This document shows, one piece after another, positions 1-55,596 of a stretch of DNA of 62,238 bases. This DNA is from a virus. Its lineage: Duplodnaviria; Caudoviricetes. The DNA is taken from the IMG/VR virus record IMGVR_UViG_3300038300_000076, positions 1 to 62,238 of that record. One strand, written 5' to 3'. Position numbers and translations under genes: made by a program. Numbering within the stretch: position 1 is the stretch's first letter; every line of letters starts with the position of its first letter. Under the pieces are notes generated by a model that saw only the letters and a list, made by a program, of their open reading frames with translations, searched no databases and was not told the DNA's origin.

Positions 1-1994
1 TTAACCTCTACAATGGAAGCGTATGCTTTGGCCCACTTTCCAACGCCTTGACTTACAGCACTAGAGGTGTAACGCGATTCTCCACCTCGACTCCAGCCAT
101 TGGAATTCCAATTAATCCCATCCAAAGCACCATGATCTCTTCTTATATCTGACTTCTCTCCAAACAAATTCCTTATGTCTGGATCTACTATATCATCCAG
201 CTCAGAAGAATTTAACATTCTTAACTCAATTCCAAAGTCTGCCCTTACAGTTCTTGCAAGATCAGCCAAGCTTTCAAAGTTATAACTAGGATCGCATCCA
301 TGATCAAATGAAATTATAAATTTTAACTTTCTCCTCAAAAGCTCATACGCACCCAAGTTCTCAAAGTGACCCCCATCAGATAAATACCAACTTCTTTTAG
401 ATGTCCCTTTAAACATAGCAAACAATTCCATTGTCATCAGCTTCTGATTCTTAAATAACTTCTCAACCTTACTTACCCTCCCTCTCTTAACTCCTGAATC
501 CCACCAGTATCCCAACCTAACGCCAAGTATCCCAGAGACTAAACTTGTAAATCTAGTTGTCAACTTCCCCATTCCTGTAGACATTGCTGCAGCCGAAATT
601 GCCATGTATCCTCCGACAGTTATACTCTCAGACTCCACTTTTTCACTTCCCCATACTTTATACGACTTTGCCAGTTCAATAGGAACATGATAGGTATTTT
701 CTTTTCCTGCCTCAGTTAAACAGTGATGTCTTACACCTACAGATTTAGACATATCAGGTATTACTGCTAAATTACATCCTTTCCTATTAAGCTGATATAA
801 ATCGCTTCTGCCGTCGATTGTTTCATTTAACGTCATGTTTATGATATGCACTGGCCCACCGTTGTCATAAGGTCTGTATTGGCTTTCAATGACATCATCA
901 TCTTTAAAGTCAGTTGAATACATTACACCTTTAGCAAGCCTATCTGGAACCGCTGCTCCTAAAAACCCTCTTACTAATCTATTATGAAAAATTCCTTGCA
1001 TGGATATCTTGTTGATTAATTTCTTTCTACTTCCTAAGAATAAATTCAATCCAACAAGTAAAATAAAAAGCATAAACACATATGCCAATGATGATTTATT
1101 TTCAAATGTGAACGAATGATTTTCAAACCCTATTATATCCCAAAAACACATATGAGCAAAAGCGAAAGGAGTGCTCATTATTATAACTACAGCCACCAGC
1201 AAAGATGCATATTTAGTAATAACTTTAATAAAGCCCATTGAACTCGAAGAACTTGAGAAAAAATCTTTCCCTAATGAAAATAAATATATAACGAAAGATC
1301 CAGCAGAAGCCAACCCTCCTATCTCCTCGAATGATAATTTCCTATACATATTGAAGCCAATTGTATCCACTATAAACAAGAGAGCTCCTCCCAGCGCCAC
1401 ACACAATGAACATGTCATAAACTTCGTCATACCTTTCAATGTAGATACTTTTAATATGGAAGCTATAAGCATTCCCAATATTCCTGCGAGCGGAACAATG
1501 AGATATAAACTGTAGTAATATCCACCACTCTCATATACTTGACTCACAAAAGGAATAAATCTGAAAGACATACTTACCATGGATGCAAACAAAAAGTACA
1601 CTAAAAAGAATCCAATCCAGTTTATCACATACTGAGCAACCCCTTTGATAAAATCGCCATCCCCAGAAGGTGCAATGTAATTTCCAGAATTCCTTAGATA
1701 TTTCACCTTTCTGTTATCCATGCTTAGATCTGTATCTTTCTCACTCCAACATCTTCCCCAAAAGGCTCCAAAATAACCTCCTCCTGACACCGTAGACATG
1801 TAATCTATCTCTTCTTCTAGATTATTCTCTTGGAGAGCTTGAAATGCTCCTAACGATTGAGTTGCAGAACGAATTCCACCACCAGACAAAGATACACCAA
1901 CTGGATTTCTTTCTTTGTTACGATTTAATTTTTCATTGCGGCTTCTAATGGCTGCACGTTCTTGCTTTTTTAGCTCTTCTGGATATTCATTCAT
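1..1994 (-). CDS. Patatin/cPLA2-like phospholipase with central transmembrane region (3' end outside window)
   Basis: Not in the ORF track because it has no stop inside the window. ATG at 1994 overlaps the upstream TGA. Translation gives MNEYPEEL...GVSLSGGGIRSA (oxyanion motif), YMSTVSGGGY (nucleophile Ser), several hydrophobic helices at about 1050-1630, and YLSDGGHFENLG (catalytic Asp). Confidence 0.85.
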   Translation of the reverse strand, partial: MNEYPEELKKQERAAIRSRNEKLNRNKERNPVGVSLSGGGIRSATQSLGAFQALQENNLEEEIDYMSTVSGGGYFGAFWGRCWSEKDTDLSMDNRKVKYLRNSGNYIAPSGDGDFIKGVAQYVINWIGFFLVYFLFASMVSMSFRFIPFVSQVYESGGYYYSLYLIVPLAGILGMLIASILKVSTLKGMTKFMTCSLCVALGGALLFIVDTIGFNMYRKLSFEEIGGLASAGSFVIYLFSLGKDFFSSSSSSMGFIKVITKYASLLVAVVIIMSTPFAFAHMCFWDIIGFENHSFTFENKSSLAYVFMLFILLVGLNLFLGSRKKLINKISMQGIFHNRLVRGFLGAAVPDRLAKGVMYSTDFKDDDVIESQYRPYDNGGPVHIINMTLNETIDGRSDLYQLNRKGCNLAVIPDMSKSVGVRHHCLTEAGKENTYHVPIELAKSYKVWGSEKVESESITVGGYMAISAAAMSTGMGKLTTRFTSLVSGILGVRLGYWWDSGVKRGRVSKVEKLFKNQKLMTMELFAMFKGTSKRSWYLSDGGHFENLGAYELLRRKLKFIISFDHGCDPSYNFESLADLARTVRADFGIELRMLNSSELDDIVDPDIRNLFGEKSDIRRDHGALDGINWNSNGWSRGGESRYTSSAVSQGVGKWAKAYASIVEV

Positions 1995-2215
1995 TTAAAA
2001 CTCCTGCCGTTTTCCCGAATCCATTCTAAAGAAGTTTCATAGGAGTATAATTTATCTTCAAACATTGACCATATTACCAAAGAACCCTTAGGCCTGTTGA
2101 GCAGCTCATCAAAGAATCCTTTTTTATTGTCTGACTTAAGCCAACCATTCTCTATGTCAGAATAATCACCCTCATATTCATTCTTAATGTTTATTATTTT
2201 TTTACGCTTTAACAT
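1991..2215 (-). CDS. hypothetical protein (carries KGSLVIW motif)
   Basis: ORF track; coupled to neighbours by an ATGA overlap. Confidence 0.7.
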   Translation of the reverse strand: MLKRKKIINIKNEYEGDYSDIENGWLKSDNKKGFFDELLNRPKGSLVIWSMFEDKLYSYETSLEWIRENGRSFK

Positions 2216-2223
2216 TTTTCCCT

Positions 2224-2634
2224 TTAATCAAAATCATCAGTTACAAAAGAATATCCCTCAGGATCTAAATACGTATTGTACTCAGATCCGATATAATCAT
2301 GCCTGCATTCTACAGCATGACTCTTATTGTTTTTATTCTTCATGCTGTCTTGAACTATCTTCTTCAATTCCCAATATGTAACACGTCTACCATACTCATC
2401 ATTTATTACATTTTCTTTCAACTGTAAAAACTCTTCCCAGTCCTTCCAAGAATTAACTATAATATATTTGGGGTCGCTTACAGCCAAACAGCCATCAGGA
2501 GCATAATAAGATATTTCTGGATGCACGGATTGAAAACAAAACTGCCATCTACCCGTAATCTTTCCAATGTGAGCCTTGTCAAACCTATCACAGCAATTAC
2601 ACTTATTATATATCATATAATAATTCGTTCCCAC
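2224..2634 (-). CDS. hypothetical phage protein
   Basis: ORF track; GGAGG Shine-Dalgarno upstream. Confidence 0.75.
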   Translation of the reverse strand: MGTNYYMIYNKCNCCDRFDKAHIGKITGRWQFCFQSVHPEISYYAPDGCLAVSDPKYIIVNSWKDWEEFLQLKENVINDEYGRRVTYWELKKIVQDSMKNKNNKSHAVECRHDYIGSEYNTYLDPEGYSFVTDDFD

Positions 2635-2720
2635 AGATGCCTCCCACTGTATTTAACAATTCCAAACGATAACAAACACAATAAAGGCAACTAAGTCCAC
2701 CAAAGAGCCTCAATTGCCTA

Positions 2721-3479
2721 TTATACGTATTTCTTTTTGAATTCTTTATAATCTAGAAGGAATGATATGTCAGTTGTTTTGAAGTTTGCACTCATTGATG
2801 TTTTTTTGTTCCCATACTTATGCCACCAAAGCTCATTAAACTCAATTCCATTTATTGAAATATATCTACCAGAATTCAACTGGCCATTTTTAAATAAGTC
2901 CGCAAATTTCAATGGATTTTTTTCATTCCATTCTGTCACCCAATCTGGAACTAACACATTATCTCCAAAATCCTTGTTGAAATCTCCATAGAAATTCTTC
3001 ACCTTTGAAGCAAGATTAATTATAGCATCCTCATATGTTCTTCCTCCAGAATCCAAATTATCATCATGCCATCTTTCCCATCTTCCCGACTGCTCAAAAT
3101 AACGCATCGCTCCAGATTCCAGCCATATCTCCACATGATCTTCCTCCCACTCATAACCAAAATACATCTTATAAGGAACTCTTAAATTTGGCAACTGAAA
3201 CTCAGTCTCCAACTTCAAAAATCCGTCATCATCTAAGTGCTCCAGATGTATCTCTTTATTGTTTTTAGATTCTTCTAAAAACGACGTATACCTTGGATTA
3301 TTTTTACTTATATAAATATCCTTAGGTGACATATTTAAATCATAACTATTGCGGCAACAGTTTCTAATATTCATATCTATATTCATCTCTCTCCACCCAA
3401 AAGCTGGATGATCTTCTATAAAACTATACGCTCCTTGAAAATCATTCATGATTTCCTCAGACATTTTTAATTCTTTCAT
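2721..3479 (-). CDS. hypothetical protein
   Basis: 252-aa ORF in operon. Confidence 0.75.
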   Translation of the reverse strand: MKELKMSEEIMNDFQGAYSFIEDHPAFGWREMNIDMNIRNCCRNSYDLNMSPKDIYISKNNPRYTSFLEESKNNKEIHLEHLDDDGFLKLETEFQLPNLRVPYKMYFGYEWEEDHVEIWLESGAMRYFEQSGRWERWHDDNLDSGGRTYEDAIINLASKVKNFYGDFNKDFGDNVLVPDWVTEWNEKNPLKFADLFKNGQLNSGRYISINGIEFNELWWHKYGNKKTSMSANFKTTDISFLLDYKEFKKKYV

Positions 3480-3670
3480 TTTATCTCTTCCTTATAACAA
3501 ATAAAAAGACTACCATCTTTATTCTCAGCCCAATTTTGAAATGCGTTGAAAATTCTGAGGCACTTAATACTACAGCAATCTTTATTAAATTGAAGCGGAG
3601 CCTCAATATTGCACGTTTTGCATCTAGTTGATACTCTTTTACTCCTGAAAAATATCTTTGGCCAAAGCAC
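3476..3670 (-). CDS. small Cys-rich hypothetical protein (C-terminal DGSLFICYKEE)
   Basis: ORF track; CxxC and CSxxC. Confidence 0.6.
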   Translation of the reverse strand: MLWPKIFFRSKRVSTRCKTCNIEAPLQFNKDCCSIKCLRIFNAFQNWAENKDGSLFICYKEEIK

Positions 3671-3910: not shown

Positions 3911-4357
3911 TTAATTAACTTCTCCAAGAATATGTTGTAGTTCTATAAACTCCTCTTCAAACTCTTCTTCCCAAGGCAGTTTTCCTTTAGTATCACACCA
4001 AACCAACTGCAATGCTTTAAAACCATTTTTAAAGTGACAACCAGTTACTGTCATCTTTTCTTTCATTTCTTCTTTGCCAACTTCTATGAAAACCATAGGA
4101 AGTCCGCTTTCAGTGTAGTTGGAATACTTCTTCCCTAATTCTATTTTTTTACCTTCCTTCATCTCAGATCCGATCTTATTGATAAAAAAAGCAGAAACGT
4201 CTGGAGGCAATCCACTCACAATAAGTTCTGGAAAACCATATTGAGTTAATCCTGTAGAATAAGTGAAAGATGGACGATCCGCTACTCCGGTAATGCTCCA
4301 TCCTATTCCTTCCGTCATGTTTTTAACTACATCTTTATGAAAGTCATCCATGCTCAT
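3911..4357 (-). CDS. DUF4262-like protein
   Basis: GW..V...PSFTYSTGL...GFPELIVSGL and ALQLVWCD..GKLPWE motifs. Confidence 0.75.
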   Translation of the reverse strand: MSMDDFHKDVVKNMTEGIGWSITGVADRPSFTYSTGLTQYGFPELIVSGLPPDVSAFFINKIGSEMKEGKKIELGKKYSNYTESGLPMVFIEVGKEEMKEKMTVTGCHFKNGFKALQLVWCDTKGKLPWEEEFEEEFIELQHILGEVN

Positions 4358-4794
4358 TTAACCGTCTCCAATTTATCTTCTGGCAAATTAATAACTACAT
4401 AAGGCATTCCATGGGGCAAAGATTTCCACATTTCTTTAGGAGCACAGTATTCCATAAGATTAAGACCAATTGCTAGAACTAATAAATTTTGACAATCATT
4501 ATGTTCTCCCCATTGATATCCATCTTTTGTCTGACAAAAATTAAGAAAAGACTGCCCTCCTCCTTTTCCTTTCATGAATCCATCTTCAAATTCGGAAAGC
4601 CACTTGATCACTTGATCTTTCTTCTCATTAAGCCTTTTCGAATTTAAGCAAAAAGTTTCTACAATTCCTTCAACTACCACTGGAGCTGCAAAACCTTCTG
4701 AAATACATCTTCCACCAGTATCAACTTCTTCTTTCTTATAAAGAGAATCCTTTAACGCTTCTTCTATTTTTTTTGCTGAAATCATTTTGTTCAT
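4354..4794 (-). CDS. hypothetical phage protein
   Basis: ORF track 4354-4833; start moved downstream of the promoter at 4813-4840. Confidence 0.7.
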   Translation of the reverse strand: MNKMISAKKIEEALKDSLYKKEEVDTGGRCISEGFAAPVVVEGIVETFCLNSKRLNEKKDQVIKWLSEFEDGFMKGKGGGQSFLNFCQTKDGYQWGEHNDCQNLLVLAIGLNLMEYCAPKEMWKSLPHGMPYVVINLPEDKLETVK

Positions 4795-6104: not shown

Positions 6105-6320
6105 TTATCTGCAGCCACAGCTGCAATTCCCACATAAATTTCTACCACAAACCATTGGGCCATGTGTTTCGCCACAATTGAAAGTTGCCTTTGTTCCACA
6201 TCTACATTTTAAATTCTTATGCCTTTCGCAATTAATCTTTTTACATTTTCCAACCCAACATTCAAGGAATCCGCAGACTTCACTTGAAATTACTCCATCT
6301 AAAAATTTATCATTGTTCAT
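6105..6320 (-). CDS. Cys-rich (Zn-binding) hypothetical protein
   Basis: Multiple CxxC/CxC; probable start MNNDK. Confidence 0.55.
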   Translation of the reverse strand: MNNDKFLDGVISSEVCGFLECWVGKCKKINCERHKNLKCRCGTKATFNCGETHGPMVCGRNLCGNCSCGCR

Positions 6321-8229: not shown

Positions 8230-8475
8230 TTAAGAAAATACTCCATGAGAGATTCTTAATGTACCTCTGATATATCTTTCAAATTCTTTGTTTACTACTT
8301 TTTGAGATAACTTCGTGGGTGAATATATACTATCTATGTTTTCTTGAGACCATACAATCAAAGCCCCACAGTCATAAATATCGTTAAATGGGAAATATAC
8401 GTCAAATGAATAAAAAGATTCCTTTTCAGGAATTTCTATAGATTTATACTTAATATCCGTTGAGCTATAGCTCAC
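8230..8475 (-). CDS. hypothetical protein (internal CGALIVWS motif)
   Basis: ORF track. Confidence 0.6.
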   Translation of the reverse strand: MSYSSTDIKYKSIEIPEKESFYSFDVYFPFNDIYDCGALIVWSQENIDSIYSPTKLSQKVVNKEFERYIRGTLRISHGVFS

Positions 8476-8798: not shown

Positions 8799-9083
8799 TC
8801 AGTCTTCCTTTTCTTTATCAAACAATCCAGTTATCATGTGTCCAAGATTATCAGCATTACATATTGGCTTTAACTCTTTCAAGAATGATAAAGACTTGTT
8901 TATTTTTTCCATTTTATCTTTAGTCTTTTCATCTTTTAACAACTCTTTAATTCTTCTCTTCAGATAAGCACTTCCCATAAGAGCTTCGCTTATAACCGCT
9001 CTTCTTGCCCAGTATTCTACCAATGTAGGATTCTTTGACTCTGTATCTGACAAAACTTTTTTATATTGATCTATTGTTTTCAT
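8799..9083 (-). CDS. hypothetical protein
   Basis: ORF track. Confidence 0.65.
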   Translation of the reverse strand: MKTIDQYKKVLSDTESKNPTLVEYWARRAVISEALMGSAYLKRRIKELLKDEKTKDKMEKINKSLSFLKELKPICNADNLGHMITGLFDKEKED

Positions 9084-9415
9084 TAATTCTCTTCTTTAGT
9101 ATAAACCATAATTCCACTATCAACCTTCTTGGAATCTTCTACTTTCACTTCATAGATAACCGTATATCCATACGATCTGTCCTCATGAGTGTCTTTTATA
9201 CGATCTTCATCCATGCTTAATTTAAACCAGAGCTTAACACACCCCCAACCTTTTAAAGTTTTTTCATCTGTTATCTCAGTCCAGCAATACTCAGGCATAT
9301 CATTATCCAATTCCATTATCAATAAAGCACGTTCTACACTATTATCAATCTTATAGTAAAACTTTCCCCCAGAATATGGGCCTTCATAATGGCATCCTTC
9401 AATTACTTGGTACAT
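9083..9415 (-). CDS. hypothetical protein (C-terminal SGIMVYTKEE)
   Basis: ORF track. Confidence 0.65.
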   Translation of the reverse strand: MYQVIEGCHYEGPYSGGKFYYKIDNSVERALLIMELDNDMPEYCWTEITDEKTLKGWGCVKLWFKLSMDEDRIKDTHEDRSYGYTVIYEVKVEDSKKVDSGIMVYTKEEN

Positions 9416-9424: not shown

Positions 9425-9595
9425 CTACTTGTCATATTTAATGTCAAAATCATTTGGAAGGTCGTCTGGTTTAACAAACAAAGTAGCTCCTTCCACATAA
9501 GGAATTTTACTCCATACAATAAGAACTCCATCTTGGTTCTTACGCATAAAACTAGTATAGGCATCTAGATGTCCAAACTCATTACAATCAGACAT
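9425..9595 (-). CDS. small hypothetical protein, 56 aa (DGVLIVWSK)
   Basis: Manual translation MSDCNEFGHLD...KYDK; AAGGAG SD. Confidence 0.65.
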   Translation of the reverse strand: MSDCNEFGHLDAYTSFMRKNQDGVLIVWSKIPYVEGATLFVKPDDLPNDFDIKYDK

Positions 9596-9944
9596 CTCCT
9601 TTCTTCCATATCAACAAACATCCTTCTCTCTTTCCAATCTTATCGCAATCTTCGCATAATGTCTTAATTAAACTATCAATAGACTCATTTCTAGGATGGA
9701 AATAAACCCTTATGGATCTAAACTTTGTCTTTATTTGAAGTATGTTGAACTCTTTTTTGTAGTCAGGATTTTCATTTAAATATTTTTCTATGCTATCTAA
9801 AAAAACCTTAGCCATGTCATAATACTCAATAGGAAGAGAATATTTATATCCATCATTGTCACTTAGAAAATCATATACTTTATCAAACTCATAAAACATA
9901 TCATCAAACATATCATCAATGTCATATATATACTTACTCATCAC
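9588..9944 (-). CDS. hypothetical protein (QIKTKF..R.Y; C-terminal EGCLLIWKK)
   Basis: ORF track. Confidence 0.7.
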   Translation of the reverse strand: MMSKYIYDIDDMFDDMFYEFDKVYDFLSDNDGYKYSLPIEYYDMAKVFLDSIEKYLNENPDYKKEFNILQIKTKFRSIRVYFHPRNESIDSLIKTLCEDCDKIGKREGCLLIWKKGDV

Positions 9945-10413: not shown

Positions 10414-10424
10414 ATTACTACCCT

Positions 10425-11015
10425 CTAATTATCAAAGAAAAAGACAAAGCGACCATTCTTTCCGTTGCCACCAGCTTTTTCTTTCAATTCAACTGCATGG
10501 TTATACATGTGTTCGAATTCATCTTTATCAAGATTCTCAATTATTTCATCCGCAGTCATGTAAGAATGTGAATGTCCATCAGAATCCATTCTGTCTGACT
10601 CATGCTGACACTCTTCTGAACAATTTGAAGGAAGACCCCTTGGATAATCTATTGGATCTCCATTTGATCCCCATCCCCCACGAACTCCAGCAAGAGAGAA
10701 AAATAAAGAATAATCACGACCAACATCCCAATCCATCAACCTAACATCAATCTCTGGCTCATCCTCATACCCAGAATCTCTATATTCTTTGGCAGAATCT
10801 TGAGCCATCTTAAGCCAATCAGTTTTTTCATCCCAAACAAACAGCCAACCTTCAGCTTTTCCTTTCCTTACAGCCTGATAATCATTGTACTCAAAAACCC
10901 AAGGAGATACTTCAAAATCACTCCCATAGTTCTTGTAATTGCTAGGAGCACAAATCTCCCACTCATTAATTCCTTCGTTGTACACTTCAGCATACAGATG
11001 TATGTCGCATCCCAT
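10425..11015 (-). CDS. conserved phage hypothetical protein
   Basis: MGCDIH...R.Y.LF..LAGVR...PRGLP...HSHS...RFVFFFDN. Confidence 0.8.
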   Translation of the reverse strand: MGCDIHLYAEVYNEGINEWEICAPSNYKNYGSDFEVSPWVFEYNDYQAVRKGKAEGWLFVWDEKTDWLKMAQDSAKEYRDSGYEDEPEIDVRLMDWDVGRDYSLFFSLAGVRGGWGSNGDPIDYPRGLPSNCSEECQHESDRMDSDGHSHSYMTADEIIENLDKDEFEHMYNHAVELKEKAGGNGKNGRFVFFFDN

Positions 11016-18068: not shown

Positions 18069-18242
18069 CTACTCGATTAAATCTTTTTTATAGATAAAAA
18101 GTTCTCCGTTCGATAGAACTGGAATCTCATAGGCCAAATGATCTCCTTCATACATAACCCACATAAACGTGGACTCTGTCCAATTCATCTGTTGGCCCCA
18201 AGGCCACCAATCCCAAGCTTGATTCACAGTTCTACCGCTCAT
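18069..18242 (-). CDS. small Trp-rich hypothetical protein, 57 aa (C-terminal NGELFIYKKD)
   Basis: Manual translation MSGRTVNQAWDWWPWGQQ...LIE. Confidence 0.6.
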   Translation of the reverse strand: MSGRTVNQAWDWWPWGQQMNWTESTFMWVMYEGDHLAYEIPVLSNGELFIYKKDLIE

Positions 18243-19693: not shown

Positions 19694-20020
19694 TTATAGA
19701 ATTTCTTTAACTTCTCTGCTTATAAGTAGTAATCCTTCATACTTCTTTCGCTCCCAATTCCACCATTCATCCTTAAACTTAAAATATTTCTTCTTTGCCT
19801 CACTCTGCAACGTTTTGTGAATATCTAAAAAAACTTCTTCAGCACAGGTCTCGCACAACTCTATATCCTGATCAAACCCATCCATCCCAATGCTGTAGAA
19901 TCCAAATGAAAAATTCAGGGACGCTGTTTTCTCAACTCCATCACTGTCAAAAACTTCGCCGCACTTACAGCAAAATAAACCAAATACTTCAATTTCTTTC
20001 ATACCTAATGATTTTTTCAT
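19694..20020 (-). CDS. Zn-ribbon hypothetical protein (C-terminal EGLLLIS)
   Basis: CxxC...LCxxC. Confidence 0.7.
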   Translation of the reverse strand: MKKSLGMKEIEVFGLFCCKCGEVFDSDGVEKTASLNFSFGFYSIGMDGFDQDIELCETCAEEVFLDIHKTLQSEAKKKYFKFKDEWWNWERKKYEGLLLISREVKEIL

Positions 20021-20364
20021 ACCATCTCCAATCTATAATCAAGCAAAAGAAGCTCACCTTTTTTTATTAATTTTGACGCTTGATTCCTTTTAACAATGTC
20101 TGTAATTGCAATTAATTCTTTAAAATAAATATCTACTTTTTCAGAATCCTCCCAGTTGCCATAGACAAGCCCAACTGTAATATCAAAAGTTCTAATCATA
20201 ATATCATGAGAACTTAGCAGTAAATGACCAATGGCGTCTAACAAAGGACTAAGCCCAGCTTCAAGATATTCATCCCTCAGGGCATTTAGAGTTTTGTAAT
20301 TCTTATTTAACTCAGCTACAGCTCTTATTAAATGCTTTAAACATATCTCATCATCTTTCCTCAT
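20017..20364 (-). CDS. hypothetical protein
   Basis: ORF track. Confidence 0.65.
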   Translation of the reverse strand: MRKDDEICLKHLIRAVAELNKNYKTLNALRDEYLEAGLSPLLDAIGHLLLSSHDIMIRTFDITVGLVYGNWEDSEKVDIYFKELIAITDIVKRNQASKLIKKGELLLLDYRLEMV

Positions 20365-24771: not shown

Positions 24772-24966
24772 TCATCTTTCTTCTTTATTTAAATTCCAAA
24801 CCATCAGACATCCTTCTGGACAATAGTAATAGTTTGGACTCAAATCTCCATTTGAAGCTAAAATTCCAACTTCCTTCAAGGCTTCAGTAGCTTCTTCTGG
24901 AGATTTTATCCTTTTTGATTCCCTATGCATAGCCTCTATAAGCTTTTGCCTTAATTCACTATTCAT
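24772..24966 (-). CDS. small hypothetical protein (C-terminal EGCLMVWN)
   Basis: ORF track. Confidence 0.7.
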   Translation of the reverse strand: MNSELRQKLIEAMHRESKRIKSPEEATEALKEVGILASNGDLSPNYYYCPEGCLMVWNLNKEER

Positions 24967-24969
24967 ATG

Positions 24970-25332
24970 TTATACAATTTCTTCTTTGTCAAAAATAAAT
25001 AAAGCATTGTCAACTTTATCTATTTTTTTTAGATCCTTGTGTCCAATTACTGCACGTGTTCCACAGGAAATATTATATTCCCTAAAGACCCAAACATTCC
25101 AATCCTTCATACTTCGCCATTTAGATATAGTTTTATATATTGGCTCCTTGTTGTAAATAAACAAAGCACTGGGCTCCATATTTATAACATTTAAAGTTTT
25201 ATGTTCACAGGCATAATCCAACTCATGATCTCCATATGTAGAAATCTTCTGAGATAAAATCCATTTCTTTGAATTTCTAGCCCATACCCATTCCGGCTTT
25301 CGCTTTACAATCCTATCCATTATCATCTTCAA
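24970..25332 (-). CDS. hypothetical protein (SALFIYNKE, DNALFIFDKEE)
   Basis: ORF track. Confidence 0.65.
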   Translation of the reverse strand: MKMIMDRIVKRKPEWVWARNSKKWILSQKISTYGDHELDYACEHKTLNVINMEPSALFIYNKEPIYKTISKWRSMKDWNVWVFREYNISCGTRAVIGHKDLKKIDKVDNALFIFDKEEIV

Positions 25333-25708: not shown

Positions 25709-25721
25709 ACTATTTAATTCC

Positions 25722-25875: not shown

Positions 25876-25909
25876 TATTAATTTACTATACACTCTACAT
25901 TCAAACAAT

Positions 25910-26146
25910 TCAAATCTCCTTTTTGTTCCATATTGTCAAACAATTTTCTTCCACCTCTACAAAGCAACTCATTGGAACAACTGTATCAGTCCCAAATCCA
26001 TCTGGCCATCTGTAATGAAGATATCTATCAATGTCATGCTTTTCAACTTCAACAACTCTTCCTACAAATGGTCTTAATCCAAACCAAGCGCCACCACGAT
26101 AATTAGGATTCCATTCTTCTATTATTAGTATATCAACAAGTTCCAC
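25910..26146 (-). CDS. hypothetical protein (C-terminal ENCLTIWNKKE)
   Basis: ORF track. Confidence 0.65.
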   Translation of the reverse strand: MELVDILIIEEWNPNYRGGAWFGLRPFVGRVVEVEKHDIDRYLHYRWPDGFGTDTVVPMSCFVEVEENCLTIWNKKEI

Positions 26147-26453
26147 TTTTAATATTCTTTTCCCACTTATCCATCTTCTTGTTCATATAGCTTAACACTT
26201 CGGAACTGTCTCCGCTTCTGGCGAAATAAAGAGAGAATACGCATATTGCAATATCCAACGCTTCTCTGCTGGATGATTCATCAAGACTCTTGTAAGCCTT
26301 TACATCACTTCCATCTTCTATACATACAGCTGTAGAGAATTCTCCTAGCTCTTCCAATAAGTGAAGTACGATTGTTCCTGTGTTTTCTGACGGATTCTTC
26401 AACTGTTCCTCAGTTAAGAACTTAATTCTTTGTAACGTTTCTTCAAATTTCAT
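26133..26453 (-). CDS. MazG-like nucleotide pyrophosphohydrolase
   Basis: L.EELGE...EALD..I...KMDKW. Confidence 0.7.
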   Translation of the reverse strand: MKFEETLQRIKFLTEEQLKNPSENTGTIVLHLLEELGEFSTAVCIEDGSDVKAYKSLDESSSREALDIAICVFSLYFARSGDSSEVLSYMNKKMDKWEKNIKSGTC

Positions 26454-26721
26454 TTTGATCCCATACTTTCAATTTTCCATTAAATATTTCTTCGAACTCT
26501 TCAAAAGTTATCACATCTCCCATATCACGCATTCTATCACTGGATATCATACTTGAATGAGTTAAATCACCATCTTTATCAAGAAACAAATAATGAGAGT
26601 CCAAATTTGATATTTCACTGCTCCCAGTAATCCAGCTGTGTCCACAATCAAATAACTCACGTTGAACTATAGCTGATTGCTCATGATTTACTTTCATTCT
26701 AAAGGCCATCATTACTTTCAT
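26443..26721 (-). CDS. hypothetical protein (C-terminal NGKLKVWD)
   Basis: ORF track. Confidence 0.7.
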   Translation of the reverse strand: MKVMMAFRMKVNHEQSAIVQRELFDCGHSWITGSSEISNLDSHYLFLDKDGDLTHSSMISSDRMRDMGDVITFEEFEEIFNGKLKVWDQNEI

Positions 26722-27696: not shown

Positions 27697-27873
27697 TTAC
27701 TCTATCCTTTTGAAAATTCTTATCCTTTCCTTACTCCATGTCAACAAGACTCCTTCAATGGGATCTATAGGCATGCTTGCAAGTCTTTCAAAAGCTTCGA
27801 GAACCTGAGCATCAAATTTAGTTGACACATAGCCATCAATCTCAGAATCATCCATCTCAAAATAATCTATCAC
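27697..27873 (-). CDS. small hypothetical protein, 58 aa (EGVLLTWSKE)
   Basis: Manual translation; GTG start overlaps the upstream TGA. Confidence 0.6.
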   Translation of the reverse strand: MIDYFEMDDSEIDGYVSTKFDAQVLEAFERLASMPIDPIEGVLLTWSKERIRIFKRIE

Positions 27874-42252: not shown

Positions 42253-42583
42253 CTCCTTGGATTTCTTTCTTTTCTAAAATACAGAGTTCGCCTTTGTTAG
42301 GAGCGTCATCGTTGTACACAAAGTTTCCTACTCTTTTAATTTCTTCTTTTAAATCCTCTATTACATCCTCAGGCACATAATCTCCCTTGCTAAGATGCTC
42401 ATTAATATGATCTATCGCCTCAGTTCTTGTAAAGAAAGTTGGATCTCTACTATCAGAGAATATTCCTCCTACAGCAGAACAACCACAGCACCTTATATAT
42501 CCACCACAATCATGGAATAAATAGATGTCTGCGTCGCCAAATCTACAATAAGACATAATCTTCTCCTTTTTCACTTTAAACAA
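42233..42583 (-). CDS. hypothetical protein (C-terminal KGELCILEKKE)
   Basis: ORF track; true start probably MSYCRF. Confidence 0.7.
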   Translation of the reverse strand: MFKVKKEKIMSYCRFGDADIYLFHDCGGYIRCCGCSAVGGIFSDSRDPTFFTRTEAIDHINEHLSKGDYVPEDVIEDLKEEIKRVGNFVYNDDAPNKGELCILEKKEIQGDDGNEE

Positions 42584-42670: not shown

Positions 42671-43021
42671 TCACACTCCCCACAACCACACACAGTATCT
42701 CTCATCATACAACGTCTTTCCCCATACATGAAGATGACCATCATCTCTCGATTTGTTACTTTTTCTATTCCATCCTATTCGGCAACTTTCATCGCAAAAA
42801 TACTTCTGATAATCCCTACCGCATTCAACACCGCTCTTATGAACAATATTAAACCTACTACCACAACAATGACACTTTACATTGTAATCATAACTTGGAT
42901 CTCGCCATACTCCGTTCTTAGAAAATTGCCAATCACTTGCTTCCGTCACAGGATATATAAACAATCCTCCCTCGAACTCTTCAACTTTTTTTCCTGACGA
43001 ATATAAGAAGTAATAATGCAC
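42671..43021 (-). CDS. Zn-finger hypothetical protein (DGHLHVWGK)
   Basis: CxxC...FCxxxC. Confidence 0.65.
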   Translation of the reverse strand: MHYYFLYSSGKKVEEFEGGLFIYPVTEASDWQFSKNGVWRDPSYDYNVKCHCCGSRFNIVHKSGVECGRDYQKYFCDESCRIGWNRKSNKSRDDGHLHVWGKTLYDERYCVWLWGV

Positions 43022-43805: not shown

Positions 43806-44080
43806 GAAACTTCCTTTTTATTCTCAACAAATAAATATCCATTCGCATTGCAGTATTTCTTTTTACCCTCGATCATTACATCATGCTTATTAGACATCCT
43901 CTCAAAAGAACTTATCTTAAACATTCCGAAACATGCTATCCCTATACCCATGGGTGGAAACATTAAGAATGCTACTGTTTCATAATGTACAAAGGAAATA
44001 GCCCCGCCAACAAACAAAATCAAACACAAAGGAGCTACAAGAGCGAATATAAACCAAGATTTCTTTTTATACTTATTCAT
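43802..44080 (-). CDS. membrane protein (C-terminal NGYLFVENKKE)
   Basis: Two TM helices. Confidence 0.7.
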   Translation of the reverse strand: MNKYKKKSWFIFALVAPLCLILFVGGAISFVHYETVAFLMFPPMGIGIACFGMFKISSFERMSNKHDVMIEGKKKYCNANGYLFVENKKEVS

Positions 44081-45907: not shown

Positions 45908-46099
45908 TTATATTCTTTCTATATCAAATATAAACAGTGAATTGGGAATTTCAAGCTGCGCTGATAGAACATGTGGAAATCTTTTTCCACTTACCATATG
46001 AAGCCAAACGGCATATCCTGTTCCCTTCTCACACGACCAAAAAGTTTTTCCATCCGAAGAGTAATATCTCCTTTGCTTATTCCTAACTCTCTTTCTCAT
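45908..46099 (-). CDS. small hypothetical protein (C-terminal PNSLFIFD)
   Basis: ORF track; GGAG SD. Confidence 0.65.
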   Translation of the reverse strand: MRKRVRNKQRRYYSSDGKTFWSCEKGTGYAVWLHMVSGKRFPHVLSAQLEIPNSLFIFDIERI

Positions 46100-46432: not shown

Positions 46433-46672
46433 TTAATCCTTTTCTGAATTTTCCTCCTCATTCAGCAGCTTCTTCACTCTCTTTAAAAAAACCTCATCAG
46501 CCAACGCCTCACTCAGCATGGTATTAACCATCTCGTTGAACTCAGGACTTTCCAATTCAACATTGTGCTTATCCGCCATCATGACCAAAAAGTTATAAAT
46601 TTCAGAATCCTTTTCTGAGTCAATTACATACTTCCAATCTCCATCTTCCATTTCATACTCTTCCATCTCCAA
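46433..46672 (-). CDS. acidic hypothetical protein
   Basis: ORF track. Confidence 0.65.
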   Translation of the reverse strand: MEMEEYEMEDGDWKYVIDSEKDSEIYNFLVMMADKHNVELESPEFNEMVNTMLSEALADEVFLKRVKKLLNEEENSEKD

Positions 46673-47000
46673 CCTCTTCTTTTACGCCAATTAATAAAAA
46701 TCCTCCTTCTTCTCCTTCAAAGTGCCTGTAGTTATCAAGGCAAAGGCCATTGCCGTCCAACGTTATTGACGTTATACACTTAACACTTAAATAAGTATAC
46801 GAACCGGAATATATCATCTTTAAACAACCTTCCTCAATCTCCAACTTCTCATCATGGAAAGAATTACTACAACTAATACCCTTACTGCCCGTTTCAATAA
46901 CCAAGGAAGGAACCATATAACGATCTGAAATTTTTCCAAAATCTCTCATGAAAAAATAATCATTAACTACATTTCTAACAATTTTCTTTTTCAAGGGCAA
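46653..47000 (-). CDS. hypothetical protein, paralog of 46975-47328
   Basis: Shared L.IE..CL...Y.....I.SI.L. Confidence 0.65.
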   Translation of the reverse strand: MPLKKKIVRNVVNDYFFMRDFGKISDRYMVPSLVIETGSKGISCSNSFHDEKLEIEEGCLKMIYSGSYTYLSVKCITSITLDGNGLCLDNYRHFEGEEGGFLLIGVKEEVGDGRV

Positions 47001-47328
47001 CCTCTTCTACATCATAAACCAACAATCTTCCCTCTTGATTTCCCCTTATCTCGTGAATTTTTTGACAATGAATTCCGGCCTCTCTCAGAAAGATACTCTC
47101 AATATTGCCAATAAACACATAACCATAAGCTGCCGCAGTGTAGCCCTTAGCCGAAGTCGAACATAAACAACTTCCTTCAATGTCAAGACTATCACAAAGA
47201 GAAGAATATTCATAGACACTTGATCCCATGCGGATCTCCAATGTGTAATCTGATCCAAGGAACCCCATCATATTGAAGTCGCTTATTGCCAATTTCAACC
47301 TTTCAATTTGATTCACTTCTTGATCCAA
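46975..47328 (-). CDS. hypothetical protein (C-terminal EGRLLVYDVEE)
   Basis: ORF track. Confidence 0.65.
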   Translation of the reverse strand: MDQEVNQIERLKLAISDFNMMGFLGSDYTLEIRMGSSVYEYSSLCDSLDIEGSCLCSTSAKGYTAAAYGYVFIGNIESIFLREAGIHCQKIHEIRGNQEGRLLVYDVEEVALEKENC

Positions 47329-48955: not shown

Positions 48956-49519
48956 TTATTTAACTATTGCTAGAATTTCAGCTTTGTTTATCTCGTCTAT
49001 ACGTAAATTAACATACGCAACTATATGCCTTGGCTTAGCAAGTTTACCAAGCCCAGAATCCCCACAAGCCAGAATCCCACACTGAGTTTCTAATATATCC
49101 CATCCATCTTCTGGCAACTTCTTTAAACTTCTTTGCATTGGATTAGATTCAAGCATGTTCGTGTTCATTGCTGGCGCTATTATCTTAATTCCTCTAAATG
49201 CTAAAGCCATTGCCGTTAAAACATTGTCAGCAATTCCATGATGAACTTTAGCAATGGTGTTAGCCGTGGCGGGCGCTATAAGAAATATATCTGCCCAGTG
49301 TGCTTTAGTGATATGCATTACTTCTCCCTTCGCTTCATCATCAAAAGAAGATAACACTTCCCTCTTTGACAATATTGCCAATGGCATTTCCGGTATAAAC
49401 TTCTTAGCATCATCAGTCATAACCACTTGAACTTCATGCCCCGTCGCAACAAGCCCACTAACAATGTCGCAAGCCTTATAAGCACTTATGCTTCCCGTAA
49501 CCCCAAGCAAGATATTCAC
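48956..49519 (-). CDS. coaC: phosphopantothenoylcysteine decarboxylase
   Basis: GVTGSISAYK, HI, APATANTIAK, PAMNTNM, LACGD.G.G. Confidence 0.9.
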   Translation of the reverse strand: MNILLGVTGSISAYKACDIVSGLVATGHEVQVVMTDDAKKFIPEMPLAILSKREVLSSFDDEAKGEVMHITKAHWADIFLIAPATANTIAKVHHGIADNVLTAMALAFRGIKIIAPAMNTNMLESNPMQRSLKKLPEDGWDILETQCGILACGDSGLGKLAKPRHIVAYVNLRIDEINKAEILAIVK

Positions 49520-50187
49520 TAACTTAATTCCATTTTTGACACAATAGCTTCACGCAAGTTATTTGGTAGAAAATTCCTTTTCACACTCTCACAGGTATCC
49601 TCGCCACAAATGTAAGCTCTTTCACGTGCCCATTCAAGGCAGTTTGCAACAATAAAATCCGCATTACTCTGTTTACGTGACCTGTGAGCTATTTCTATAA
49701 GCTCTTTGTCCGTAATGTCAACTTGAAGCTTAAACTTCACCAGAGTGCCTTTAAATCCCCACAGGCCGAGGTTATCTACTATTTTCTCAGTCGGAACAAG
49801 CTTTAAAAATAATTCTTTATGACTTGAACTAATTTTTGATCTCGAATCGACTTCAATCAAATTACTGTCAAATGTTCCTACTGGCTTGTAATCTGAAACA
49901 GCAGCGCTGTGAATGATTACATCATAATCACCAGAAGCACATTCTTCTTTCATTCTATTATAAAGTTCGTCGTATGTCTTGTATGCATCGTAATGACAAC
50001 GACTTCTTCCCATTGCAGTGAAATTTAAACCATACTCACTACTTGAGGTAAGAAGCGTTACATCATCACCACTAGAAACAAAATGATTTGCAATATCAAA
50101 CCCTGTTCTGCCTCCAAAGATATTGGATATCTTACGAACTTTGTCTATCATTGTGGCAGTATTTCCACTTGTAATTAATACTTTCAT
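49519..50187 (-). CDS. coaB: phosphopantothenate--cysteine ligase
   Basis: LITSG.T...ID.VR.I.N...G..G, HSAAVSDY, KISS, FKL, VAN. Confidence 0.88.
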   Translation of the reverse strand: MKVLITSGNTATMIDKVRKISNIFGGRTGFDIANHFVSSGDDVTLLTSSSEYGLNFTAMGRSRCHYDAYKTYDELYNRMKEECASGDYDVIIHSAAVSDYKPVGTFDSNLIEVDSRSKISSSHKELFLKLVPTEKIVDNLGLWGFKGTLVKFKLQVDITDKELIEIAHRSRKQSNADFIVANCLEWARERAYICGEDTCESVKRNFLPNNLREAIVSKMELS

Positions 50188-50257: not shown

Positions 50258-50539
50258 TTATTTCTCTGGATATATTGGCCGCTTACTTGAATCTTGGTTT
50301 TCATTTTGAATTATCCCTATCATCAATTTCTTCTTTCCAACCATCAGACATCCCTCTTTATGAATTCCCCACTTATGAGCCAAATAAGCACTGACTTCAA
50401 GCCTACTCGGATCATCCAAAATTCTATCAAAAACTATAGCTTCCTTCAATTCTCCCAGTTCTTTCACCGGATTATTCCCATCGACGTCATCAACATTACA
50501 AGAATTATCACAGTTAAGATGAATGCCCAAACACTCCAC
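50258..50539 (-). CDS. hypothetical protein (EGCLMVGKK)
   Basis: ORF track; start uncertain. Confidence 0.55.
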   Translation of the reverse strand: MECLGIHLNCDNSCNVDDVDGNNPVKELGELKEAIVFDRILDDPSRLEVSAYLAHKWGIHKEGCLMVGKKKLMIGIIQNENQDSSKRPIYPEK

Positions 50540-52505: not shown

Positions 52506-52955
52506 TTACAAAACGTATACTTTTACTTCAATGTCTCCAAAAACATCATTTATCATTCCTTCAACTTTTCCCCAGTTACCACCTGCCAAACCACAGCCAA
52601 TCTTTGGAAGAGCTAAAGTGTAATCATTCTCAACAACAAACTCTTTTAACTTCTCAAGACAAATATCCAGAGCATCATAATCAAGAGGCTTAGTGTGCCT
52701 GCTGTAATCATATTGAGTATAGCAGTTTGCCACTACTTTAATTTTCTTACTATCTACATTTACAAAATCCACTTCGCCAAGCTTATGTTTTGTAGTGTAT
52801 CCACCCATAAATGTATTATCAGCAGCTCTTACTCTTGAAAACTTCTTTGTAATTACTTTAGCTATGCCTGACTTCATTGTACATTTGCAATTACAACCAT
52901 GAGCTATTACTTCGCAATTCGTTTTAAGCAAATCGCCTTTTATATATGTAATCAT
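52506..52955 (-). CDS. macrodomain (ADP-ribose binding/hydrolase) protein
   Basis: GDLL, IAHGCNC...M.SGIA, N.YTQ, LPKIGCGLAGG.W. Confidence 0.9.
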   Translation of the reverse strand: MITYIKGDLLKTNCEVIAHGCNCKCTMKSGIAKVITKKFSRVRAADNTFMGGYTTKHKLGEVDFVNVDSKKIKVVANCYTQYDYSRHTKPLDYDALDICLEKLKEFVVENDYTLALPKIGCGLAGGNWGKVEGMINDVFGDIEVKVYVL

Positions 52956-53155
52956 TTCACTTCCTCTTTAAATCCTATAAACAAACAATATTTTCTTTGC
53001 TTTATCTTTTTATCAAACCTCTTATTTACATAACAGCATATCCTGCCCTCAACCCATGAATGTGGACTGCCGCCAAGCTCAACAAGTCTCCAATATCCCC
53101 AATTGATTGATGTATCCCAACATAAAGTTGGATAATCTTTTGACTCTTTAAGCAA
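52952..53155 (-). CDS. small hypothetical protein (C-terminal YCLFIGFKEE)
   Basis: ORF track. Confidence 0.6.
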   Translation of the reverse strand: MLKESKDYPTLCWDTSINWGYWRLVELGGSPHSWVEGRICCYVNKRFDKKIKQRKYCLFIGFKEEVK

Positions 53156-54146: not shown

Positions 54147-54162
54147 ATTGATCTCCTTTAAT

Positions 54163-54774
54163 TTAAATAACTTTACCCTTTACCCATTTGCTTATATCTG
54201 GCTCAGTAAAGTTCACACCGTACTTCTTCTCAACCACTCCAACCAACCAACAAACAGCTTTGTTAATCCTTTTAATATGTACTTCCTCCAACTCATCACA
54301 TCTGTCAAGATAAGCTCTTACCAAAGGATGAGCCTGAAGTGCATACTGAGCAGCGTAATCTTCCTTACCCTCAGTGCTCAAGTAATCCTGTACATTGCAA
54401 CATCTGTCAGCAATCTTAATGGAAATCGATTCCAATGACTTTCCGCTAAAGGACTCAAGAAATTCATACTTCTGGAGCTTACTTACGTCATCTCCTCCTT
54501 CTCTTGTGCATTCTAACACATATTTGGCCACTTCTACGCCAAACTGTCCCTTAATCGTCTCTACGGTTACTTCACAGTCTTCAATGACATCGTGCAACAA
54601 AGCAGCAATAAGCATTGCCTCGTCATCTATTCCAAACTCTGATACTGCCTTCATAACTTCAAAACAATGACTTACATAAGGTATCTTCTTCCAAGGCTCT
54701 TCCTCAGTTCCCTTTCTAAACTGCCCAGCATGGCTCTTCACTGCAAATTCTATTGCTCTTTGTATGTTGCTCAT
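54163..54774 (-). CDS. HD-domain (p)ppGpp hydrolase-like (Mesh1/small alarmone hydrolase family)
   Basis: A..FA...HAGQ.RK...PY..H...V, AALLHDVIED, IKIADR..N. Confidence 0.85.
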   Translation of the reverse strand: MSNIQRAIEFAVKSHAGQFRKGTEEEPWKKIPYVSHCFEVMKAVSEFGIDDEAMLIAALLHDVIEDCEVTVETIKGQFGVEVAKYVLECTREGGDDVSKLQKYEFLESFSGKSLESISIKIADRCCNVQDYLSTEGKEDYAAQYALQAHPLVRAYLDRCDELEEVHIKRINKAVCWLVGVVEKKYGVNFTEPDISKWVKGKVI

Positions 54775-54775
54775 A

Positions 54776-55249
54776 TTATCTATCCTTAATTATATGTTTT
54801 TTTAAAATTTCCAAAGGTGTAGAATGTTCATGGTTATCAACCAATATTGAACATGTTGACTTATAAACTTTAGATATAAAATCCATTGTATCTTCGCATG
54901 AAACCACTTTATCATTTTTACCAAGTATAAACATCATGCTTGGCCTATTTACACTATCTTTAATTCCCCAAGAATCAATATCCTTAGAGTGAGCCAATGC
55001 CGGATTTAACAGCGTTGCATTGATATTATTATTTATTGATAAGTAATATGCAAGAAATCCGCCTAAGGAACTTCCCATAACCTCATCTATATTTTCTTCT
55101 TCTATCAACCTCTGCAGTTTTGAATAGCATTCCGAACGATTATCATAATCTATTTTTGGAGCAACAACATTATATATCGTTTTAAGATATTCTATTTTTT
55201 CTCCAGAGTTTCTTCCTCTTAATCCATGCAAATACAAAAGTTTTTTCAT
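54776..55249 (-). CDS. YqiA/YcfP-like alpha/beta hydrolase
   Basis: YLHG, GSSLGG, NPAL, D.VV, H. Confidence 0.85.
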   Translation of the reverse strand: MKKLLYLHGLRGRNSGEKIEYLKTIYNVVAPKIDYDNRSECYSKLQRLIEEENIDEVMGSSLGGFLAYYLSINNNINATLLNPALAHSKDIDSWGIKDSVNRPSMMFILGKNDKVVSCEDTMDFISKVYKSTCSILVDNHEHSTPLEILKKHIIKDR

Positions 55250-55596
55250 ACTTCGTTCTTTGCTCCTATCTTTAACGAACTCACTGGCTGCTTTATTCCA
55301 ATTCTTAGCACGTATTGTTCATCCTTTCTATTTTCAATATAACACTCTATCTCGCTGCCAATATAATCCCAAGTAATTCCATACTCAGGAGTATACTCAT
55401 TACGAATAACATCTAAAATCTCTTCTGCCTCTGTCTCATTTACTATAATGTCATTATCTGCCGCACATAACAATATATCATCTGCATGCCAAATGTCCAC
55501 AAGGATATGAGATAATAATTTATCAATAACTTCTTTTGCCTTTTCACCGTCAACAATCAAGTCTCCTAAAGCATCTAAGATATCGTCTCTAAACAT
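55246..55596 (-). CDS. hypothetical protein
   Basis: W..DD...A..IL.......GITW..I; C-terminal LRIGIK/LKIGAK. Confidence 0.7.
   Translation of the reverse strand: MFRDDILDALGDLIVDGEKAKEVIDKLLSHILVDIWHADDILLCAADNDIIVNETEAEEILDVIRNEYTPEYGITWDYIGSEIECYIENRKDEQYVLRIGIKQPVSSLKIGAKNEV

Follow-up and report, generated by a model that had tools for sequence, protein, structure and literature searches.

Can one short peptide recur at the ends of many unrelated proteins of a single phage, and if so, what might read it? In large phages the majority of genes specify small proteins whose function is unknown, and handles for studying these as a group are scarce. We have analyzed a stretch of 62,238 bases of a large, uncultured phage, from the Caudoviricetes virus record IMGVR_UViG_3300038300_000076 (hereafter the window), in which an original prediction, made from the DNA sequence alone, had placed a common motif at or near the C-terminus of about 20 otherwise unrelated small proteins. 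A peptide common to about a quarter of the small proteins would provide such a handle. As judged by the comparisons described below, the motif has been attached to at least 14-17 small proteins that are otherwise unrelated, and it is kept by purifying selection on its amino acids.

A recurrent motif at the ends of small proteins

A greedy call of open reading frames (ORFs) gave 115 on the minus strand, comprising 18,716 residues and 91% of the window; each is named here by its left coordinate. The 25 strings listed in the original prediction are all present in the ORFs to which they were assigned, as seen from full translations and coordinates. Aligned on the invariant Leu, the full motif covers about 12 residues, [DENK]-[GN]-x-L-h-[IV]-[WYF/G]-x-K-[KE]-E-[IV]. 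It is made up of a turn ([DENK]-[GN]), four consecutive hydrophobic residues of which the last is aromatic (x-L-h-[IV]-[WYF]) and a charged cap (x-K-[KE]-E-[IV]). In most copies the stop codon is reached 0-2 residues past the motif. The Gly lies 11-13 residues from the C-terminus in 12 of 18 terminal copies when two weak ones are counted, and in 11 of the 16 strong ones. Terminal copies are found in 17 of the 66 ORFs of up to 130 residues, i.e., about a quarter of the small ORFs, and in none of the 49 larger ones (p = 3e-5). All the carriers of terminal copies are 57-120 residues long. The larger ORFs include the enzymes recognized by Pfam, in agreement with the earlier statement that recognizable enzymes do not end in the motif.

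The placement and membership first proposed require some revision. Most copies are C-terminal as claimed, but four are internal or semi-internal, the Gly being 31-34 residues from the C-terminus in 1991, 9425 and 50258 and 22 residues from it in 42671. The strong copies stand as members, but those of 9083 and 55246 are weak and lack the G-x-L register. The string described as an internal copy in 10425 is indeed present, but it falls in a stretch of the form x-E-G-x-x-x-W that is conserved within the family, in homologues from Mycobacterium, Enterobacter and Paenibacillus phages. This look-alike probably lies outside the motif system.

The frequency of the motif was compared with that in 1000 within-protein shuffles of the 115 ORFs. 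The core G.L.[IV][WYF] was observed 11 times where 1.24 occurrences were expected (shuffle maximum 5), and six times in the last 25 residues where 0.16 were expected. The broader pattern [GN].L.[IV][WYF] gave 16 against 2.28 overall and 10 against 0.31 in the last 25 residues. The consensus of the original prediction was found 8 times against 0.084 expected, and the reversed pattern was at chance (1 against 1.29).

Because the patterns tested came from the same data, we also used de novo discovery, cross-validation and comparison with unrelated phages. Expectation maximization under a model of zero or one occurrence per sequence (ZOOPS), applied to the last 25 residues, rediscovered the motif without prior input and extended it to about 11 columns. 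The likelihood of 196.97 compares with a maximum of 196.16 in 60 shuffles (z = 1.9), a weak statistic taken alone, the margin being small because expectation maximization overfits. For cross-validation a model was trained on one half of the window and tested on the other, with the cut-off set at the 98th percentile of internal windows and p calculated from the binomial distribution. With a width of 11, the held-out C-termini above the cut-off were 5 of 51 (p = 0.0035) and 8 of 59 (p = 2.3e-5). With a width of 8 they were 2 of 51 (p = 0.27) and 5 of 59 (p = 0.0065), and with a width of 6 the result was not significant (p = 0.64 and 0.11).

The unrelated phages were T4 and Staphylococcus phage K, both AT-rich with many small genes, for each of which bases 1-50,000 were processed with the same caller on both strands. 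The motif was at chance in these stretches: the core occurred twice in the 96 ORFs of T4 (0.9 expected) and once in the 113 ORFs of phage K (0.91 expected), in neither case within the last 25 residues. A position weight matrix (PWM) trained on the copies in the window was also used to scan the last 27 residues at a threshold of at least 10 bits. This matched 17 of 119 ORFs in the window, none of 96 in T4 and none of 113 in phage K. The scan included L005 and L006, two syntenic metagenome loci that are relatives of the window, with orthologues of the 42233, 43802, 45908, 46653 and 46975 proteins. Although outside the training set, they gave matches in 3 of 46 and 3 of 39 ORFs, respectively. On leaving out each member in turn, 14 of 22 scored at least 9.9 bits. 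When the 22-copy profile was compared with the sequences in the PDB, the best match had E = 1.1, which is the level of chance.

Unrelatedness of the carriers

The carriers are of several kinds, Zn-ribbon-like, helical, all-beta and, in one case, membrane-looking. The claim that they are unrelated outside the motif was borne out. All-against-all comparison by blastp gave short matches centered on the motif, except for the adjacent pair 46653/46975 (the best carrier pair, with E = 0.024); carrier 3476 matched the non-carrier 4849 at E = 0.021. Comparison of ortholog profiles by hhalign aligned 0-8 columns with a probability of no more than 1.5%. None of 20 carriers was matched in Pfam at E <= 0.01, and one of 20 was matched in PHROG, in its N-terminal part only (26443, residues 5-57); the two scanned sets have 19 proteins in common. 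The possibility that the carriers constitute a single paralogous family was rejected, there being, apart from that adjacent pair, no detectable similarity beyond the motif. Moreover, neighboring copies resembled each other no more than random pairs did (p = 0.27 and 0.19), and recent local duplication thus does not account for the spread of the motif.

ORF 24970-25332 contains the motif twice. Its halves align over a module of 21 residues (10 of 21 identical, E = 5e-5), each module ending in the motif, and the whole looks like two motif-ending small genes that have become fused. Split forms of this ORF were not found among proteins of 30-65 residues.

Searches with individual carriers gave little. 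The 26443, 9588, 42671 and 19694 proteins had no match on tblastn against 50,697 phage records, and the 25910 protein gave matches in the wrong context only (E = 0.08). There was no usable match to the 18069 protein in the ESM Atlas.

Motif-like ends or internal copies are also present in the relatives, at 4309-4440 and 4651-5364 of L006 and 3951-4061 of L005; examples are a 43-residue ORF ending RLFISWQKKEIV and an internal NDGCLVIFCKELEE. Counterparts of these among the ORF ends of the window were not noticed, none having been specifically sought, and the set of carriers thus seems to change between relatives.

Selection on the peptide sequence

It had been proposed that selection acts on the peptide, and not on a DNA repeat, and the codons support this. 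The motif Leu is encoded by all six of its codons and the Gly by all four of its codons, in proportions near those found genome-wide. In four ortholog families the synonymous rate was 0.286 in the motif versus 0.332 in the remainder (p = 0.41), and the non-synonymous fraction was 0.258 versus 0.519 (p = 1.5e-8), the pairs compared across the families not being independent. Synonymous change thus runs at its usual level within the motif whereas non-synonymous change is cut to half, from which it follows that the peptide is what is under selection.

The motif is retained, with synonymous changes, in all of the L005 and L006 orthologues of the 42233, 43802, 45908, 46653 and 46975 proteins. Identities in the motif block and in the rest of the protein were 0.80/0.59, 0.73/0.50, 0.76/0.48 and 0.58/0.20 for four orthologue families. 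The 46975 family evolves fast; its invariant columns include G100, L102, L103, E109 and V110, all of them in the motif, and no alignment window is better conserved than the motif (0 of 107). In three orthologues of 45908 the most conserved block is LEIxNxLFIFD. In the 9588 family (four orthologues) the K, G, L, W and V are invariant while the Cys next to the Gly varies. A role for this Cys as a Zn ligand was considered and dropped, the residue being C, I, A, A and F in the 9588 orthologues.

Could the motif be instead a by-product of gene junctions, generated at the level of RNA or DNA by a Shine-Dalgarno (SD) sequence, a U-rich enhancer, an overlap of start and stop codons or a recombination linker? 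By inspection, about 10 of 18 terminal copies have an SD-like element for the next gene within their tail codons; translation initiation therefore has a share in the K-E-E signal, as the original prediction had cautioned. ATGA overlaps occur in 5 of 18 terminal copies, and the tail codons carry somewhat more information at their third positions. Yet the caveat does not account for the whole of the tail. K/E-E-[IV] is present in the last eight residues of 6 of 16 motif genes compared with just 3 of 98 other genes, and so the tail belongs with the core and is not a general effect of gene ends. In five or six terminal copies the next start is 20-78 nucleotides away or there is no SD sequence in the tail; the tail of 18069, for example, is not the SD sequence of the next gene given the position of that start. 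Internal copies exist, and both the diversity of Leu and Gly codons and a synonymous divergence equal to that of the remainder also stand against a junction origin. Direct similarity of DNA is unnecessary to explain the data. We consider such a by-product extremely improbable as the source of the motif, and for the core it is largely excluded. Ideas involving nascent peptides or termination coupling, and frameshifting, were dropped, as the distances to the stop codon and to the next start vary and there are internal copies.

Addition of the motif to existing domains

Do homologues elsewhere lack the tail? In two families they do. The N-terminal domain of 42233 has a homologue in Ralstonia phage RSP15, with 36% identity in the alignment and 32% over the tblastn match, which ends before the motif-bearing extension of 33 residues; orthologues at 66-69% identity keep this extension. 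The domain of 26443 is widespread, with 57 representatives at E <= 0.001. We aligned the 16 shortest of these matches (up to 119 residues), leaving out the 41 longer ones. All 15 of the distant small homologues aligned end just before the tail of 12 residues, and the 53%-identical orthologue alone carries it, as DGSLAVADKNEI. Because the distant homologues end just before the motif, it is an add-on in these two families, and since relatives exist without it, the 42233 and 26443 domains fold without the tail.

AlphaFold2 was applied to alignments of 6 rows for the 42233 family and 3 rows for the 45908 family. With such shallow alignments the models were poor overall, with a mean predicted local distance difference test (pLDDT) score of 54.7 and 54.2, respectively; neither tail was placed on its domain, and the tails had pLDDT values of 29-45, which speaks weakly for a docking tag. 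Prediction of a two-copy complex of the 26443 protein from a 17-row alignment returned a score of 0.00, i.e., no answer, neither for nor against self-association.

A possible shared docking peptide and its alternatives

We have here a portable peptide, selected for its own sequence, on unrelated domains, and on these grounds we favor a shared docking tag. Our proposal, which is possible but short of probable, is that the motif is a lineage-specific, portable C-terminal docking or addressing peptide that is read by one common partner. A turn, hydrophobic strand and charged cap would have become attached to unrelated small domains. The strand is hydrophobic on both faces and would not be satisfied by a small domain on one side, from which we infer that it most likely serves as a docking strand; it might add to the edge of a beta-sheet of the common partner or enter a hydrophobic groove, with the K/E cap staying in the solvent. 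In this way many small accessory proteins would be brought, as a set, to the same receptor. Candidates for this are the phage ClpS-ClpA-ClpP (for timed removal), the inner face of the capsid, the MoxR-VWA pair and a host hub. A bolder form of the proposal, which we consider unlikely, has one universal address peptide for 15 or more unrelated small effectors. At its boldest the reader would be a pocket on the inner face of the phage's own HK97-fold capsid, working as encapsulins do on their targeting peptides; the virion would then contain a mixture of small proteins, delivered into the cell together with the DNA. An equally new alternative is that the phage's ClpS-ClpA-ClpP reads the tag and clears the whole set at a fixed time.

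If there is a common receptor, one bait peptide could reveal it, and one tag could be used to load, localize or destabilize foreign proteins in this phage system. Were the capsid the reader, there would be a direct link from phage biology to the cargo-loading mechanism of encapsulins, and were it a phage Clp machine, this would be a virus-encoded degron system. Under a more modest reading, in which the motif is a reusable cassette that caps folds, it would show how a phage builds many new small proteins.

A number of observations weigh against a shared docking peptide. For the common reader there are candidates only, with no partner recovered, and one carrier (43802) is probably a membrane protein, which fits badly with loading into the capsid. 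A strictly terminal tag predicts no internal copies, and five or six exist, at distances of 22-66 residues from the C-terminus. Ahead of the motif in 18069, 25910, 45908 and the extension of 42233 there is a plausible partner strand with a [DN]-G turn, so that the motif might be the final hairpin of a sheet belonging to the protein itself; the AlphaFold2 models (mean pLDDT 54-55) are too poor to tell a free strand from a packed one. G-x-L-h-[IV] is a common strand motif elsewhere, and the best matches in the PDB (E about 1) are buried strands, in MT-A70-type proteins and Hsp33. Lastly, the census covers 62 kb of a genome of at least 98 kb, and the control with unrelated phages comprises two phages only.

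Several of these points bear on the main rival explanation, that the motif is an integral element of each fold, its last strand and often part of a hairpin, or a reused strand plus cap that confers foldability by stabilizing tiny domains. This would fit the [DN]-G turn that follows an alternating strand in several carriers, the existence of internal copies, the family-conserved setting of the 10425 look-alike and the similar strings buried in solved structures (E about 1), and a core strand would show equally strong conservation. Yet two of the domains are widespread without the tail and so fold in its absence, and the helical carriers 9588, 20017 and 26443 have no preceding strand with which the motif could pair. 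The small proteins of T4 and phage K do without such a solution, the charged tail is conserved together with the core, and it is hard to credit that the same 12 residues have converged in 14 or more unrelated folds. On balance an integral strand is somewhat unlikely. The strands of the carriers might alternatively pair with each other, forming an intermolecular sheet that generates dimers or mixed oligomers. A run of four hydrophobic residues has to be buried on both faces, ORF 24970 has two modules in one chain, and many small regulators of phages dimerize through terminal strands. None of the analyses gave positive evidence for such association, and the sequence does not separate it from docking on a third protein; we think it very unlikely to be the explanation.

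The remaining alternatives name a particular reader. The motif could be a degradation or adaptor tag for the phage ClpS-ClpA-ClpP, giving the small proteins a programmed lifetime. Full-length ClpP, ClpS, a ClpA-type double AAA+ protein and an ATE/Bpt-type transferase are encoded in the window, and motif genes adjoin both ClpS (42233) and ClpP (18069), but gene neighborhood is a weak argument in a genome packed with small genes. In ssrA-type and other Clp C-degrons it is the last few non-polar residues and the free carboxylate that are recognized. The ends here are in contrast charged and variable (K, E, V, I, S, N, L or C), for which the ssrA-type definition was rejected, and extensions of 5-8 residues past the motif are tolerated in 27697, 42233, 46653 and 46975. 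A Clp tag is thus improbable. Alternatively, the peptide might be bound on the inner face of an HK97-fold capsid in the manner of encapsulin cargo, the small proteins being packaged and delivered with the DNA. The receptor for encapsulin peptides, which like the motif are short additions at the extreme C-terminus of otherwise unrelated proteins, is an HK97-fold shell related to phage capsids. According to PMC8346489, the Family 1 targeting peptide has the consensus SDGSLGIGSLKRS, which has the register D-G-S-L-x-I in common with the motif. This consensus scores 10.4 bits on the motif PWM, which is the bottom edge of the range of the members (10.7-25.1), its second half (G-S-L-K) remaining unmatched. 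A score as high is reached by 0.01% of random 13-mers and 0.02% of shuffles of the consensus, values that are optimistic since the comparison was picked post hoc, after several known motifs had been considered. Relative to the encapsulin peptide, bulky or aromatic residues here replace Gly/Ser, there is no Gly/Pro-rich linker and some copies are internal. The motif has at least 14 carriers, not a handful, and they include 43802, probably a membrane protein with two spans. Furthermore the carriers lie among metabolic and accessory genes and not structural ones, and there is no capsid gene within the window: none of the 49 larger ORFs matched a capsid or encapsulin family, in a window that is part of a genome of at least 98 kb. 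We regard capsid loading as highly improbable.

Comparison with known systems

Shared terminal address peptides are a known kind of system, exemplified by the cargo peptides of encapsulins. The scale found here, about a quarter of the small ORFs in a phage region, is unusual. Full-text searches of the literature, supplementary files excepted, turned up no description of such a shared tag on small phage proteins, which does not prove that there is none.

Short terminal peptides also send heterologous proteins into the prohead in phages, examples being the targeting sequence of T4 internal proteins and, in HK97, the C-terminal tail of the prohead protease. The signal of T4 occupies the N-terminus and is removed by cleavage, and neither signal is known to resemble the motif in sequence. 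Bacterial hubs provide further instances in which short hydrophobic terminal peptides dock in one pocket, some by strand addition; these include the sliding-clamp motifs, the ClpX-binding tail of SspB and ssrA-type degrons. The clamp-binding motif is defined by a Gln directly before the first Leu of a hydrophobic motif of five or six residues. There is a Gln before the Leu in 0 of 22 aligned copies, and this identification was rejected. Hairpins with a [DN]-G turn, such as the last hairpin of the swapped-hairpin domains of AbrB/MazE, have the order strand, [DN]-G turn and x-[LI]-h-[LIV] strand, as in the motif. The signature of that fold differs from the motif in having neither the aromatic residue nor the K-E-E-[IV] cap, and an AbrB/MazE (SpoVT_AbrB) domain was rejected, as 0 of 20 carriers match any Pfam family.

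Individual copies of the motif and gene content of the window

The individual copies, including doubtful ones and the look-alike, are collected in Table 1.

Table 1. Copies of the motif in the window, with lengths of ORFs in residues (aa)
Copy	Position (strand)	ORF	Remarks
DGSLFICYKEEI	3482..3517 (-)	end of 64-aa ORF 3476-3670	Cys-rich Zn-ribbon-like N-terminal part; Gly 12 from C-terminus; PWM 21.2 bits
EGCLLIWKKGDV	9591..9626 (-)	end of 118-aa ORF 9588-9944	four orthologues, 59-64% identity
NGELFIYKKDLI	18075..18110 (-)	end of 57-aa ORF 18069-18242	just downstream of ClpP; next start 31 nucleotides past stop
EGLLLISREVKE	19703..19738 (-)	end of 108-aa ORF 19694-20020	weaker; two CxxC pairs; PWM 10.7 bits
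KGELLLLDYRLE	20026..20061 (-)	end of 115-aa ORF 20017-20364	weaker; PWM 11.8 bits
EGCLMVWNLNKE	24781..24816 (-)	end of 64-aa ORF 24772-24966	PWM 24.3 bits
DNALFIFDKEEI	24976..25011 (-)	120-aa ORF 24970-25332	terminal copy
PSALFIYNKEPI	25138..25173 (-)	ORF 24970-25332	internal second copy; ends first of two tandem modules
ENCLTIWNKKEI	25913..25948 (-)	end of 78-aa ORF 25910-26146	PWM 23.7 bits
NGKLKVWDQNEI	26446..26481 (-)	end of 92-aa ORF 26443-26721	add-on to widespread domain of ~80 aa
EGVLLTWSKERI	27721..27756 (-)	58-aa ORF 27697-27873	Gly 18 residues from end
KGELCILEKKEI	42260..42295 (-)	116-aa ORF 42233-42583	directly upstream of ClpS; within 33-aa C-terminal extension
NGYLFVENKKEV	43808..43843 (-)	end of 92-aa ORF 43802-44080	two hydrophobic stretches resembling membrane spans
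PNSLFIFDIERI	45911..45946 (-)	end of 63-aa ORF 45908-46099	SD sequence of next gene after stop
GGFLLIGVKEEV	46671..46706 (-)	115-aa ORF 46653-47000	Gly 16 from end; weak paralogue of 46975 (E = 0.024)
EGRLLVYDVEEV	46999..47034 (-)	117-aa ORF 46975-47328	family of 24-29% identity
KYCLFIGFKEEV	52958..52993 (-)	end of 67-aa ORF 52952-53155	Tyr replaces Gly; PWM 20.2 bits
DGHLHVWGKTLY	42707..42742 (-)	116-aa ORF 42671-43021	22 residues from end
KGSLVIWSMFED	2054..2089 (-)	74-aa ORF 1991-2215	internal; 31 residues from end
CGALIVWSQENI	8335..8370 (-)	81-aa ORF 8230-8475	internal
DGVLIVWSKIPY	9497..9532 (-)	56-aa ORF 9425-9595	internal
EGCLMVGKKKLM	50321..50356 (-)	93-aa ORF 50258-50539	internal
DSGIMVYTKEEN	9086..9121 (-)	end of 110-aa ORF 9083-9415	doubtful; no Leu in register; no position of at least 10 bits
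VSSLKIGAKNEV	55249..55284 (-)	end of 116-aa ORF 55246-55596	doubtful; no position of at least 10 bits
EGWLFVWDEKTD	10818..10853 (-)	inside 196-aa ORF 10425-11015	look-alike

The window has a G+C content of 35%, its genes are essentially all on the minus strand, and the GC skew is negative throughout. Identical protein sequences are found on contigs of up to 98 kb and a relative on a contig of 133 kb, from which it follows that the window is part of a larger genome. There is no close relative among the 50,697 deposited phages, where the best match has 31% identity over a third of the VWA protein; scans of viral contigs found no relatives, close or distant, and there were none in genome contigs. 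The genes recognized by Pfam include a ClpA-type ATPase, ClpS, ClpP, an ATE/Bpt-type transferase, a MoxR-like AAA+ protein and a CobT-like VWA protein. Other recognized genes are those for a sigma-70-family factor, a Dda-like helicase, a ribonucleotide reductase with an intein, NAMPT, NMNAT-Nudix, an RNA ligase and QueC. Taken together the recognizable genes are those of a large phage with many auxiliary functions.

The genes for the ClpA-type protein (39678-41963, double AAA+), ClpS (41950-42252, 98.2 bits in Pfam), ClpP (18248-18853, full-length, 211.8 bits) and the ATE_N/ATE_C transferase (6310-7011) are all on the minus strand. With a ClpS adaptor, a ClpA unfoldase, ClpP and an enzyme resembling arginyl/leucyl-tRNA-protein transferases, this looks like an N-degron proteolysis set that is apparently complete. 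The synteny of ClpS and ClpA is kept in L005 (10305-12880); in L006, where the locus ends shortly beyond it, there is a ClpS-like ORF only (10305-10625). Papers on jumbo phages mention ClpS and ClpA.

The MoxR-like AAA_5 gene (20700-21905) and the CobT-like VWA gene (22690-24693) form a CobS/CobT-type pair, as in many phages. Small genes bearing the motif are located on both sides of this pair, 19694 and 20017 on one and those at 24772-27873 on the other.

A set of genes for NAD+ salvage and ADP-ribose metabolism comprises NAMPT (31702-33348), a cytidylyltransferase-like plus NUDIX protein (33407-34357) and a further NUDIX protein (39172-39555), together with NADAR (9934-10413), Macro (52506-52955) and WGR (17102-18037). 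We take these to suggest reconstitution of NAD+ and reversal of ADP-ribosylation, possibly against host defenses that deplete NAD or ADP-ribosylate.

The large subunit of ribonucleotide reductase is interrupted, with ORFs at 59232-60284 and 60952-62238 and another at 60284-60949 between them. Both flanking ORFs have matches to intein splicing domains beside the halves of the reductase barrel, which suggests an intein with a separate middle ORF. Adjacent separate genes, Flavoprotein (48956-49519) and DFP (49519-50187), encode the two halves of a CoaBC-like enzyme, i.e., phosphopantothenoylcysteine decarboxylase and synthetase. Lastly, a QueC homologue (38501-39169, 195.6 bits) hints at the synthesis of 7-deazaguanine, used by some phages for modification of their DNA.

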